Made by a program: the position numbers and the translations under genes. Shown in pieces: positions 15,889 through 51,347 of a stretch of DNA of 64,000 nucleotides. Origin of the DNA: Waddliaceae bacterium (GTDB lineage: Bacteria > Chlamydiota > Chlamydiia > Chlamydiales > Waddliaceae); the NCBI GenBank assembly GCA_963724325.1, contig CAVRUH010000001.1, forward strand, positions 992,001 through 1,056,000. Reading direction: 5' to 3'. Positions within the stretch are counted from its first letter, which is position 1. Every line of letters begins with the position of its first letter. Below the pieces are notes generated by a model. That model was given only the letters and a program-made list of their open reading frames with translations. It did not search any database and was not told the DNA's origin.

Positions 15889-15962
15889 TTGACAAATACG
15901 GCTATTTTAGAGTATACTTAAAAATAGACGCGTCCATTTTAGAGTACGCTTAAAAATAGCCG
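15889..15962 (+). promoter_or_regulatory. promoter overlapped by twin palindromic operator-like sites
   Basis: TTGACA(15889)-18bp-TATACT(15913); 26-bp imperfect palindromes at 15902-15927 and 15934-15959. Confidence 0.7.
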
Positions 15963-15968
15963 GATAAC

Positions 15969-17117
15969 ATGAAACGATATTGTGAAAAATTTATCTTAGA
16001 AGACTTAAAGAAAAAAATGGTGTTTTTGGGTGGTCCGCGCCAAGTGGGAAAAACAACCTTGAGTAAAAGAATTTTACATGAAGGACATTTTAAGGGTGAG
16101 TATTTTAACTGGGATGTTGATGAAGATAGAAAGGCATTGCTTAATAAGGAATGGAAAAATGACGACTCGTTGGTTGTATTCGACGAATTGCACAAATTTG
16201 TGAGATGGAAAAAATGGATTAAAGGCGTTTGGGATTCACGTCCAGATGAACAGACTTATCTTGTTACAGGTTCAGCAAGATTAGATGTTTATAAAAAAGG
16301 AGGGGATTCCTTAATGGGTCGTTATCATTATTGGCGTCTGCACCCCTTGACTTTAGATGAATTACCAGCAGATATTACTAAAGAAGAAGGTTTTAATCGT
16401 TTGCTGACTTTTGGAGGATTTCCCGAGCCATTTTTGTCGATGGATGAACGCGAAGCGCGTCGCTGGCGTCGTGAGAGATTCGCTCGCATCATTAATGAAG
16501 ATATTAGAGATTTAGAGCATATTCGTAATATTCAGCTATTACATTTTTTTGTCGAGGCTTTGCGAAGTCGTGTGGGTGGGCTTGTGACATTGTCAAATTT
16601 AGCTGCTGACTTGGAAATAGCAGCTCAAACAGCCAAGTCATGGTTAGTATTAATTGAAAAAATGTATATCTGTTTTGCTATTTATCCTCTGATGCAAAAT
16701 GTTCCTAGGAGCATTATTAAGCCTCCTAAAATTTATTTTTTTGATAATGGAGATGTTGAAGGTGATCAGGGAGCACGACTAGAAAACCTAGTTGCCGCGC
16801 ATCTACTAAAGCGATTGCATTTTCTTGAAGACTATCATGGTTATACTTGTTCTTTGCACTATATTAGAGATAAAGATGGTCGAGAGGTGGATTTTGCTAC
16901 AGTTATCAACGGGAAAATCACTGAACTCATAGAGGTAAAATGGAAGGACACTAAAATTTCTACCAGCTTATTGTATTATAAAAATATTCTGAAGCCTCTT
17001 CGTACAGTGCAAATTGTGGGTGAATTAGATCGCACATTTGATAGAGATGATGTGCGTGTAACTCATCCTATTGACTTTTTTAAAGATCCTCCTTGGGAAG
17101 AGGTTGTTTTTAGCTAG
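15969..17117 (+). CDS. AAA_14 ATPase + DUF4143 (PD-(D/E)XK-like) protein
   Basis: GPRQVGKTT, FDELHK, VTGS, DSLMGRY, GGFPE, C-terminal REVDF...IEVK. Confidence 0.92.
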   Translation: MKRYCEKFILEDLKKKMVFLGGPRQVGKTTLSKRILHEGHFKGEYFNWDVDEDRKALLNKEWKNDDSLVVFDELHKFVRWKKWIKGVWDSRPDEQTYLVTGSARLDVYKKGGDSLMGRYHYWRLHPLTLDELPADITKEEGFNRLLTFGGFPEPFLSMDEREARRWRRERFARIINEDIRDLEHIRNIQLLHFFVEALRSRVGGLVTLSNLAADLEIAAQTAKSWLVLIEKMYICFAIYPLMQNVPRSIIKPPKIYFFDNGDVEGDQGARLENLVAAHLLKRLHFLEDYHGYTCSLHYIRDKDGREVDFATVINGKITELIEVKWKDTKISTSLLYYKNILKPLRTVQIVGELDRTFDRDDVRVTHPIDFFKDPPWEEVVFS

Positions 17118-17172
17118 CATTCTATGTTGGGAACGGTTATATTTATATTATTAAAATTCGGTTGTGTCACCT

Positions 17173-18051
17173 ATGTTAAAAAGTATGACGGCCTTTGGCC
17201 GGTATAGCATCCAGACCCCCTTTGGTCGTTTTGTTGCTGAAATTAAATCTGTGAACAGAAAATTCCTCGATATTAACATCTCCACACAAAAGGGCTTGTC
17301 TTGCTTCGAAGCAGATATTCGCACATGGATCTCATCGCAAATCTACCGCGGAAAGGTCGATGTTTATGTTTGGGCAACTTTTGAGGGCACTAATCCTGTC
17401 AAGATAACTCCAAATTTGACACTAGCTTCTGAGCTAAAAAATGCTTGGGAGCAGATTGCAGCCAAATTGGATGTTATTACTCCCTTTAATCTAGAAATGC
17501 TCCAAAATGAACCTGGCATCCTCATCTATGAAGAAAATATCGATAACGCTGACACCTATCTAAAAATCATTAAGGAAACTATCGAATCAGCCTTGAAAGC
17601 TGTCATGAAAATGAAAGCAGAAGAGGGTTCTGCACTCCAAAAAGATATTGAGAGCCGCCTTCAAAAGCTGTCAGAACTCATGCAGCGAATCGAGAAGATA
17701 GGAGATGCCTCCGTCCAAAAATACCGGGATAAACTGATTCAAAGAATGAAAGATTTCATTGAAGCGACAGAAATTGACGACCGCATACTTAAAGAAATTG
17801 CTCTTTACTCTGAAAAAATCGATATCTCCGAAGAAATTACACGTTTTCATTCACACATAAAACAATTCTTGCAATACATTCATTCTAATTCGGAAGGGAT
17901 CGGTAAAACACTTGAATTTCTCGTGCAAGAGCTTTTGCGTGAAGCTAATACAATCGGTTCAAAGTGTCAGGATGTAGAGGTATCTCGCATAACAGTAGAA
18001 ATTAAGAGCGAAATTGAACGAATTCGTGAACAAATTCAAAATGTCGAGTGA
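17173..18051 (+). CDS. yicC: YicC/YloC-family endoribonuclease
   Basis: MLKSMTAFGR, EIKSVNRKFLD, DISEEITRF.SH, FLVQELLREANTIGSK, ERIREQIQNVE. Confidence 0.93.
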   Translation: MLKSMTAFGRYSIQTPFGRFVAEIKSVNRKFLDINISTQKGLSCFEADIRTWISSQIYRGKVDVYVWATFEGTNPVKITPNLTLASELKNAWEQIAAKLDVITPFNLEMLQNEPGILIYEENIDNADTYLKIIKETIESALKAVMKMKAEEGSALQKDIESRLQKLSELMQRIEKIGDASVQKYRDKLIQRMKDFIEATEIDDRILKEIALYSEKIDISEEITRFHSHIKQFLQYIHSNSEGIGKTLEFLVQELLREANTIGSKCQDVEVSRITVEIKSEIERIREQIQNVE

Positions 18052-18631
18052 TATGAAGGGAAAAGGATTATTATTTGTGATGAGCGCACCGGCTGGAACA
18101 GGAAAAACGACCCTGATTCATAGGCTTACGCTAGAATTACCCAATGTCGTTCAGAGTATTTCATTCAATACGCGGGCTCCTAGGGATGGGGAAATTAATG
18201 GTGTACATTACAATTTTGTATCCCGCGAGGAATTTGAAAGAAAGATTAAAGCAGGGGAGTTTCTTGAGTATGTCGAACTTTATGGCAACTACTATGGAAC
18301 AACCCGCAAATGGGTGGAAGATCAATTAAGTTCTGGGAAACATGTGTTCTTAGTGATTGATACACAGGGAGCTATGATTCTAAAAGAGAGGATCGACGGC
18401 TGTTTTATATTTATACTTCCCCCTACAATGGACTCTTTGAAGGATAGATTGACCGGGCGGAGAACGGAGAGTCAGGAAGAGATGCAAAAAAGAATTGAGT
18501 GGGCAAAGAAAGAAATTGCTGTTGCAGATATGTACGATTATAATATCATTAATGACAATTTAGATGTAGCCTATGGAATATTGCGAAGTATCGTGATTGC
18601 CGAGGAACATAGAGTTAGGAGAAAAATATGA
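18041..18631 (+). CDS. gmk: guanylate kinase
   Basis: SAPAGTGKTT, TRAPRDGEINGVHYNFV, NYYGT; exact start uncertain (18041 or 18053). Confidence 0.95.
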   Translation: MSSDMKGKGLLFVMSAPAGTGKTTLIHRLTLELPNVVQSISFNTRAPRDGEINGVHYNFVSREEFERKIKAGEFLEYVELYGNYYGTTRKWVEDQLSSGKHVFLVIDTQGAMILKERIDGCFIFILPPTMDSLKDRLTGRRTESQEEMQKRIEWAKKEIAVADMYDYNIINDNLDVAYGILRSIVIAEEHRVRRKI

Positions 18632-50604: not shown

Positions 50605-50610
50605 TATTGA

Positions 50611-51072
50611 CTACCATACGTCGGCGTCGGGGTCTACGATCCCTTCTCTCCAGCGCTTTGGGTTGAAGTAGGTGCTTTCTTCTTCTTCGGTGGCTGTGGC
50701 TTCTTCTTCATCATCTTCTTTTTCTTCGATGATTGAATTGTCGCCGGTGCCAGATTCCATTTCAGTAGAGTAGTGGGTATCGGCGCCCCCCATTCCTGTT
50801 TCACCAGCATCGATGTCTGGAATAGTTGGCATTTCGGTATAGCCGGCGCGGGTGGGTGCTCTTTTTGGAGTTACATATTCTTCGCCTTCGCCGCTTTCTT
50901 TGAGAAACGAGAGTCTTTCTCTTTCTTCGTCGATTTTTGCTTTTATATTTAGAATTTCTTCCTGATGCTTAGTGATATCCCGTTTAGGAACTAGGCCTAA
51001 TTTGAGCCATTGTTCAAGGTCGTTGAGTTCGACTTCAAGTTTTTTAAGTCTTTCACTTTTAAAGTGTTTCAT
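50611..51072 (-). CDS. conserved chlamydial hypothetical protein with acidic tail
   Basis: N-terminal coiled coil 'ELNDLEQWLKLGLVPK', acidic C-terminus. Confidence 0.8.
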   Translation of the reverse strand: MKHFKSERLKKLEVELNDLEQWLKLGLVPKRDITKHQEEILNIKAKIDEERERLSFLKESGEGEEYVTPKRAPTRAGYTEMPTIPDIDAGETGMGGADTHYSTEMESGTGDNSIIEEKEDDEEEATATEEEESTYFNPKRWREGIVDPDADVW

Positions 51073-51282
51073 TTCTTATCCATAGTGTTAATAGTTAAAA
51101 ATCCCTGCACCGCTCCAAAAATTAATGCCCGTGTTGTTATTAGTAGAATTCTTTTTAATTTTTCACAAGTTATTTTTGTGAAAACTGGAAAAAATAGTAC
51201 GGTTCAGAGGCCGGAATTATAGAACATCTTACGAATTAAGTGCAATAGTATTTTTGCCATACGAAATTTTTTTGAAAATGTC

Positions 51283-51332
51283 TTGATTTTACTCAATATA
51301 TTGAGTAAAATTACTCAATAGAGCGAGTAAAA
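51283..51332 (+). promoter_or_regulatory. promoter overlapped by twin palindromic operator-like sites
   Basis: TTGATT(51283)-17bp-TAAAAT(51306); perfect 26-bp palindrome 51286-51311; second imperfect copy 22 bp downstream. Confidence 0.7.
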
Positions 51333-51347
51333 GATTGGAGGTCAAAA

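Follow-up and report, generated by a model that had tools for sequence, protein, structure and literature searches.

Solo NTPase, winged-helix and predicted nuclease genes of a Waddliaceae genome carry upstream sites that overlap their own predicted promoters and co-vary with a predicted recognition helix

Introduction

Controller (C) proteins and lambda cI at PRM bind tandem palindromic operators that lie over their own, often leaderless, promoters, and the recognition helix of the protein sets the specificity group. In AbiE-type toxin-antitoxin and Abi operons a winged helix binds inverted repeats in the operon's own promoter, restraining a toxic enzyme, and plasmid Rep proteins repress themselves at inverted repeats. 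Here we describe four genes, (a) to (d), of a 64,000-nucleotide stretch of a Waddliaceae genome (positions 992001-1056000 of contig C1 of genome G000, hereafter the window; the genome has 2.37 Mb and is 85% complete), in which a nucleoside triphosphatase (NTPase), a winged helix and a predicted nuclease are combined within a single protein. These solo cassettes possess upstream repeats that overlap the gene's own predicted promoter, travel with the gene and not with the locus, and co-vary with the predicted recognition helix of the winged helix.

The four proteins belong to PDC-S01, the fourth most common defence system (candidate) across prokaryotes, of which one survey counted about 39,000 copies (PMC12988326). 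Most PDCs are awaiting validation (PMC12988326; PMC13356809), 145 of them having been presented as untested candidates (10.1101/2024.01.29.577857), and the DUF4143 domain of the proteins is listed as PD-(D/E)XK with unknown function (PMC3424549). The accessible part of the survey describes no upstream site, self-regulation, specificity code or mechanism for PDC-S01 (PMC12988326). Likewise, no description of upstream sites of PDC-S01, DUF4143 or COG1373 genes was found in the literature searched, with supplements and most subscription papers outside it, and no account of a protein-operator code was found there either, as a sequence-only reading of the window had supposed.

Sites Upstream of the Four Genes

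The sequence-only reading had proposed that each gene is preceded by its own duplicated site with dyad symmetry, and the sites that it described are present (Table 1). Upstream of (a), the 26-mers at 15902 and 15934 are found together with the promoter TTGACA-18-TATACT, and form the inner portions of a pair of imperfect 30-bp palindromes; a TTG..-TATACT arrangement is also seen by eye in two relatives of (a) (loci L338 and L341). The 17-mer of (b) recurs at 49433 and 49466 and an inverted half-site touches the ATG, which is placed at 49405-49403 with the support of homology, while the longest open reading frame (ORF) call begins at 49432, within the operator. In (c) the perfect 26-bp palindrome at 51286-51311 is followed by a second, degenerate copy at a 22-bp period, over TTGATT-17-TAAAAT. 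The region upstream of the fourth copy, (d), was inspected as well and holds a tandem palindrome, namely a perfect 31-bp direct repeat with a 32-bp period, each unit of which is palindromic.

Two parts of the proposal stand in a reduced form. Dyad symmetry is evident in (a) and (c), whereas (b) has it only through the inverted half-site, since the 17-mer is a direct repeat and not a palindrome. The sites do differ in their cores, but "private" overstates this, because (a) and (d) have a common clade scaffold, GAC-(A/T)5...(A/T)5-GTC, and differ in a core of 3-5 bp. Genes (b) and (c) represent further clades, whose sites are direct repeats with a 33-bp period in (b) and palindromes with a 22-bp period in (c). 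In a genome scan the sites of (a), (c) and (d) occurred only at their own gene, so that a regulon was rejected, and the 17-mer of (b) had two further matches at two mismatches.

Operator Anatomy and Promoter Overlap

In the clade of (a) and (d) (clade A) the site recurs across several phyla and consists of four 15-bp half-sites, GAC-(A/T)5-core, which are arranged as two palindromes with a 32-bp period and enclose the -35/-10 promoter. The junction between the palindromes reads GTC-TT-GAC in 78 of 150 loci and therefore supplies a TTGAC -35 element, a count that is partly given by construction because GAC defined the junction. At least five of the six positions of TATAAT are present in the last half-site, in unit 2, in 89/150 loci, compared with 43/150 for the mirror-image position within unit 1 (p 3e-8), and the start codon lies 33-37 nt past the junction in 107/150, which implies a leaderless mRNA. 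Sub-clades with another geometry (short central palindromes; loci L148, L150, L084, L141, L153 and others) mostly fall outside the co-variation test described below.

The same binding could serve a two-state switch of the kind known from restriction-modification controller proteins and lambda PRM. With little protein present the upstream unit would activate, repression would come from the downstream unit, and expression would thereby be timed after entry into a new host. The arrangement in clade A, where unit 1 abuts the -35 and unit 2 covers the spacer and the -10, would suit such a switch, as would the leaderless look of the transcripts and the suboptimal promoters, which have a 16-bp spacer and, in 38/150 loci, GC instead of TT at the junction. 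However, (a) and its close relatives have the junction GAC-GC-GTC with the promoter in the first unit, and in (c) the first palindrome lies over the whole spacer and the -10, so that no activating position is left. Furthermore, the best conserved pair of half-sites is the central one, H2/H3, across the -35. Taken together, a two-state switch appears improbable.

Enrichment and Conservation With the Gene

Repeats were scored without a motif, by direct and inverted scores within 110 bp upstream of the start, for the paralogs of the genome (27 full-length and one broken copy in an iterative search; 19 with DUF4143 and 8 of PDC-S27) and for controls, namely the 1026 of 1604 ORF-called genes with at least 60 bp free upstream. 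Starts were assigned by homology for the paralogs but guessed as the first ATG for the controls, so that the control rate may be somewhat underestimated. A direct-repeat score of at least 13 was reached by 15/27 paralogs and 14/1026 controls, an inverted score of at least 10 by 18/27 and 49/1026, and either of them by 23/27 and 61/1026, at a mean upstream AT content of 0.69 and 0.67, respectively. This comparison rejects chance or AT-richness as the source of the repeats, which are far commoner upstream of the family than of control genes of similar AT content. According to our own tally, 16/19 PDC-S01 and 7/8 PDC-S27 genes pass, and a best-repeat period of 31-33 bp is found in 15/27 paralogs, all of them PDC-S01, compared with 47/1026 controls. 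The seven passing PDC-S27 genes are among the loci L427-L434, where the strong upstream repeats or palindromes mostly have a period of 51-55 bp. As a separate observation, long palindromic intergenic repeat families (REP-like) recur throughout the genome and lie upstream of several control genes (contig C1 near 17800, 24200 and 212700).

The same motif-free score is passed elsewhere by 36/75 GTDB, 29/68 metagenome and 9/24 viral loci, which are left from 80, 80 and 31 fetched loci after short, duplicated or uncertain-start ones were dropped. A scaffold profile trained on 65 loci matched 109/118 held-out chlamydial loci and 3/1026 controls.

The motif was also followed among orthologues. For (c), 30 loci were fetched and 28 parsed, including (c) itself; the palindrome lies within 110 bp in 25 of the 27 orthologues (63-69% identity), is displaced by an insert in one and is absent from one, and the flanks of these genes contain a single homologous pair among 53. 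Orthologues of (b) (68-72% identity) carry at least one copy of the 17-mer in seven of eight cases and two copies in five, the upstream contig of the eighth being just 67 bp long, and three homologous pairs were found among 57 flanks. The motif is thus conserved by orthologues in unrelated neighbourhoods. At locus L394 a hairpin-rich insert of about 150 bp separates operator and gene.

Co-variation of the Helix and the Operator Core

Co-variation of the core with the protein was analysed in 145 dereplicated training loci, of which the 63 with an automatically detected dyad were used. Residues 215-223 rank first among 374 nine-residue windows in their partial correlation with core similarity (0.30, compared with 0.22 for the next window outside this region, overall similarity being removed). 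In a leave-cluster-out prediction with 60% clusters (33 clusters, all 150 loci), residue 220 was the best of 382 columns, with 0.57 compared with at most 0.49 elsewhere and 0.36 at random, and helix 5-mers reached 0.63-0.67 compared with 0.56 for the backbone nearest neighbour. For a held-out set (130 chlamydial loci fetched with few repeats, 118 after dereplication, 85 with a dyad) the predictions were written beforehand. In this set K220 was accompanied by GG in 6/8 half-sites, N220 by GC, GG or GA in 31/32, H220 by GC in 2/2, and P220, which is a new class, by AA in 44/44. Among close relatives the helix diverges faster than the rest of the protein (59% compared with 70-85% identity).

A contrasting explanation is that the repeats are duplicated promoters, or the sites of an unrelated host regulator, that track the protein by shared ancestry alone. 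Indeed, the units hold the -35 and -10 hexamers, and backbone similarity predicts cores better than random (0.56 and 0.36, see above). However, a promoter needs no dyad symmetry, the motif persists across phyla, once per genome, and separate branches of the tree carry the same helix with the same core. The protein of (d) is 71% identical to L089/L159 in the helix and 29-46% elsewhere, and all have the same CGGA core; in trees built without the winged helix they are placed in separate clades, and their monophyly was rejected (p-AU 0.0003 in the approximately unbiased, AU, test). Similarly, (a) and L038 have helix and core in common from separate clades, and their grouping was rejected by the AU test. 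Shared ancestry alone is therefore highly improbable as an explanation. The evidence instead favours a direct reading of the core by the helix, to which several residues would contribute, and specificity probably belongs to a helix/core class common to phyla, and not to each gene.

Domain Architecture and Predicted Nuclease

All four window proteins contain Pfam AAA_14 and DUF4143, each in a single gene, and match the PADLOC PDC-S01 models (E 4e-44 to 7e-171; best per protein 1.6e-43 to 7.1e-171). The model of (a) (predicted local distance difference test score, pLDDT, 86.9) shows an NTPase, a helical domain, a winged helix and a C-terminal domain. The combination of an NTPase, a central winged helix and a C-terminal PD-(D/E)XK domain, which the sequence-only reading had taken as established, is borne out by Pfam, the model and fold searches. 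The nearest structures are PAB2304 (2qen; Z 14.4) and SSO1545 (2fna; Z 14.3), with a root-mean-square deviation of 3.4-3.7 over 242-244 aligned residues, followed by STAND proteins of the NLR/CED-4 type, while the top Foldseek match is Cdc6/Orc1 on origin DNA (2qby, E 3e-7). A P-loop NTPase followed by a helical domain and a winged helix corresponds to the basal STAND-like layout. A classical NLR-like STAND sensor was rejected, since the C-terminal 125 residues have a nuclease fold and not a TPR, LRR or WD repeat sensor. On its own, this C-terminal domain matches the PD-(D/E)XK nucleases McrC, Can2, Bax1 and Hjc, each weakly (best E 8e-4), and E306, D308, E322 and K324 (E..D..ExK) are kept in 191-194 of 195 homologues, so that the domain is predicted to be a PD-(D/E)XK nuclease with an intact catalytic motif. 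R118 is present in 195/195 homologues; the conservation of Walker A/B is partly built in by the searches. No NCBIfam family was found for the window proteins, no solved homologue was found by sequence (best E 0.015), and a viral scan with a single protein gave no match.

The fold and the nuclease motif bear on a reading in which the DNA serves as a tether or sensor. The DNA-bound protein would be inactive, and its release, by host DNA degradation, a DNA-mimic protein or a change in ATP, would lead to oligomerisation and non-specific cutting, with repression as a by-product. Such a role would agree with the four large half-sites, with an Orc1/STAND-type fold, in which DNA and nucleotide gate assembly, with an intact nuclease motif that has no antitoxin or methylase partner, and with the 6.6-fold rise of one family member with plasmid DNA in Thermus (PMC4406477). 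A tether, however, need not sit on a promoter, yet the overlap is near universal, and we regard this reading as unlikely.

Probable Self-Binding and Autorepression

That the protein binds its own half-sites is very likely. A fuller reading, in which it does so via the winged helix, covers the -35 and -10, represses itself and keeps an ATP-gated nuclease low, is probable; the position of the repeats on the gene's predicted promoter and their co-variation with the predicted recognition helix make self-binding and autorepression likely. The weakest step is the role of the nuclease, since a function in defence (abortive or restriction-type) or as a selfish nuclease has about an even chance. In this mechanism one protomer would occupy each half-site of 15-16 bp, so that the four half-sites would take up two dimers separated by about three helical turns. 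The N-terminus of the helix (residue 220 and its neighbours) would read bases 10-12, and a conserved surface would read the GAC/AT scaffold. The occupied operator would block RNA polymerase at a mostly leaderless promoter, and autorepression would keep the amount of a probably toxic nuclease small, until a trigger alters the nucleotide state of the STAND-like ATPase and switches the nuclease on. Divergence of helix and core may generate orthogonal specificity groups, such that a new paralog would not be silenced by the residents. The earlier proposal of a one-gene cassette with a cognate, paralog-specific site and autorepression is thus backed by the enrichment, by the motif travelling with the gene, by the promoter overlap and by the co-variation, but the specificity appears to be class-wide and not paralog-specific.

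A number of observations weigh against self-binding and autorepression with a role in defence. At the level of sites, 4/27 paralogs fail the generic repeat score, L036/L334, at 77% the nearest relative of (a), retains just a degenerate unit, loci L401 and L358 lack the motif, and the spacer of clade A, 16 bp in 116/150 loci, is below the optimum. Regarding the co-variation, loci without an automatically detected dyad were left out (82/145 in training, 33/118 held-out), and the signal, which is strong for residue 220 at 60% clusters, is reduced at 55% and 50% (16 and 7 clusters), where helix windows merely tie for first place and residue 220 alone is not first. The pre-written one-residue code held only in part. 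The D220 rule failed, matching 0/62 half-sites, which actually carry AC in 58/62 (the rule was mis-indexed, and D formed two classes in training), and the rules for T, Q and V were wrong at 1, 1 and 2 loci, respectively. Six independent-pair tests all lean as predicted, with almost no opposite pairs, and none is significant (median p 0.06-1), and the traits and AU groups were picked after the data or tree had been seen. Finally, the defence context is thin: of 132 neighbours examined elsewhere (from 148), 113 have no PADLOC match, and the 19 that do, for which there is no baseline, include six PDC-S01 genes and several partial or housekeeping-like matches, while 0/12 other window genes have a PADLOC match. 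Of the known defence arrangements, controller-protein restriction-modification was rejected, as the genes are solo and methylase-like neighbours occur in few of the 132, and so was a type II/IV toxin-antitoxin system, as there is no conserved partner and orthologue flanks are not conserved.

Mobility and Coexistence

The sequence-only reading had offered a recognition site for mobility as its second option. Such a selfish mobile element would use the repeats as an end or origin for excision or transposition and the PD-(D/E)XK domain as transposase, which would be in line with the patchy, non-syntenic distribution and the 27 copies in this genome, with the absence of (a) and (b) next to yicC and hemW in five relatives, with the empty (c) site of the same-genus genome G001, and with a few loci that have flanking duplications of 23-64 bp or a downstream copy of the operator. 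STAND NTPases, moreover, descend from Cdc6/Orc-related transposase ATPases (PMC8195603). Nevertheless, a second end is missing, as the gene's own half-site occurs downstream in 3/146 cases compared with 1/146 in the control, and no conserved 3' motif was found in the 27 (c) orthologues. An apparent excess of target-site duplications (9/336 compared with 0/1008 in a cross-locus control, at least 16 bp) vanished against genes of the same genome, where flanking direct repeats are found in 33/1020. Near-identical copies are absent from the genome (best queried paralog pair 55%), and no Pfam domain of a transposase or recombinase passed E 1e-3 in these proteins, a weak helix-turn-helix match aside. 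An insertion sequence or transposon was thus rejected, since there is no matching second end and no excess of target duplications, and the mobile-element reading has only a small probability. Self-operators are preferred to mobility ends because a right end, an enrichment of duplications and further genomic targets are all absent.

Individual loci, among them L433 and L316, resemble insertion scars. At locus L433 (G000:C1:1102400-1104500), where the scar looks recent, a PDC-S27 gene and its upstream site lie between the copies of a perfect 29-bp direct repeat, which holds the 3' end of the upstream gene. At loci L316, L253, L211 and L216 an operator copy lies past the stop codon, and at L316 the upstream site is shortened and a 29-bp duplication flanks the entire arrangement. 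In the window, an exact copy of the (c) half-site is located over the (c) stop codon (52535-52545), at the junction with the cytochrome c assembly gene; such a copy is present in 0/27 orthologues, and its occurrence is within chance and probably fortuitous.

An extension of the self-binding reading is that the fast-changing helix-operator code defines exclusion groups, in which a resident would silence arrivals of the same group, orthogonal copies would stack, and release from the operator would arm the nuclease. It is hinted at by the fast divergence of the helix, by the sharing of residue 220 in 2/32 pairs of co-resident clade members, compared with 4.3 (identity-matched) to 6.2 (permutation, one-sided p 0.036) expected, and by the (c)-type gene, which has exactly one match in each of 46 genomes (at most six candidates scored per genome). 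We consider this extension tentative and rather doubtful. Elsewhere, PDC-S01 genes from different clades are adjacent at loci L095, L042, L069, L128 and L159, with three in a row at L095.

Genomic Setting of the Window Copies

The window copies are solo genes flanked by housekeeping genes. Gene (c) has apparently inserted in the 3' end, within the last codons, of a cytochrome c assembly gene (PF01578; 51200-52540), as judged by comparison with the empty site of G001. The displaced 3' remnant of this gene, which carries the neighbour's -35, is found upstream of operator (c), and the gene now terminates within the antisense strand of (c). Adjoining it, at 54252-54623, is a PemK/MazF-like toxin gene with no adjacent antitoxin ORF of at least 90 residues. 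Just upstream of (a), at 10905-14959, lie two tandem transposase-like HTH_38/rve ORFs of 349 residues with identical Pfam scores, beside a third integrase-core ORF. On another contig, a PDC-S01 copy is frameshifted and in four pieces (locus L034, G000:C7, about 235870-237060).

Table 1. Coordinates of the genes, predicted promoters, operators and other features (window positions unless a contig is given).
Feature	Coordinates	Strand	Remarks
Predicted sigma-70 promoter of (a), TTGACA-18-TATACT	15889..15918	+	Consensus scan, 11/12; -10 in the middle of operator unit 1
Operator (a), unit 1 (half-sites H1/H2)	15900..15929	.	30-bp imperfect palindrome; unique in the genome at up to 6 mismatches
Operator (a), unit 2 (half-sites H3/H4)	15932..15961	.	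32-bp period; ends 7 bp before the ATG
Gene (a)	15969..17117	+	382-residue AAA_14, winged-helix and DUF4143 protein, PDC-S01 (Pfam, PADLOC, model, fold searches)
Codons 215-231 of (a)	16611..16661	+	Turn plus predicted recognition helix (219-231 in the model), in which residue 220 co-varies with the core
Terminator-like hairpin at the 3' end of (b)	48049..48078	.	Called on both strands
Gene (b)	48077..49405	-	442-residue PDC-S01 protein; start by homology
Operator (b), inverted half-site	49406..49416	.	Abuts the ATG
Operator (b), two 17-bp direct repeats	49433..49482	-	33-bp period, 17-mer at 49433 and 49466; sequence scan
Predicted promoter TTGATT-17-TAAAAT and operator (c)	51283..51332	+	Consensus scan, 9/12
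Gene (c)	51348..52538	+	396-residue PDC-S01 protein
Gene (d), 3' part	63009..64000	-	PDC-S01; start at G000:C1:1056220, just past the window
Operator (d), tandem palindromes	G000:C1:1056257-1056318		Just past the window

Comparison With Known Systems

The defined site and the residue-level code provide a first direct handle on the family, as a DNA ligand for biochemistry and structure and as a reporter in the search for the trigger, and give a reason for defence tests to include the native operator and operator mutants. They may also account for the coexistence of 27 related nucleases in a chlamydial-type genome of 2.4 Mb, and would amount to a natural collection of orthogonal repressor-operator pairs, possibly switched by ATP.

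Among described families, PDC-S01 itself has the same models and the same domains as the window proteins. The closest solved structures, SSO1545 and PAB2304, belong to PDC-S27, and seven of its eight paralogs in this genome also carry repeats; it is, however, a separate family, with longer palindromes and mostly 51-55 bp periods compared with 32-33 bp in PDC-S01. Judged from sequence and model, the module appears to work like an autoregulated repressor-operator pair fused into a STAND-like nuclease, an arrangement that is family-wide and apparently undescribed in the literature searched. In contrast to the C proteins and lambda cI, the DNA reader of PDC-S01 forms one protein with an ATPase ahead of it and a predicted nuclease behind it, and there is no small regulator, methylase or operon. 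It differs from AbiE in being encoded by one gene with no antitoxin, in having an NTPase switch and in occurring as dozens of orthogonal paralogs. With archaeal Orc1/Cdc6 on origin boxes it has in common the AAA+ domain together with a winged helix and the long half-sites, and as an origin module the likeness is one of fold only; no sign of an origin came up, in an analysis with no search aimed at one. Unlike both Orc1/Cdc6 and the Rep proteins, PDC-S01 possesses a predicted C-terminal nuclease and is present as many chromosomal single-gene insertions.

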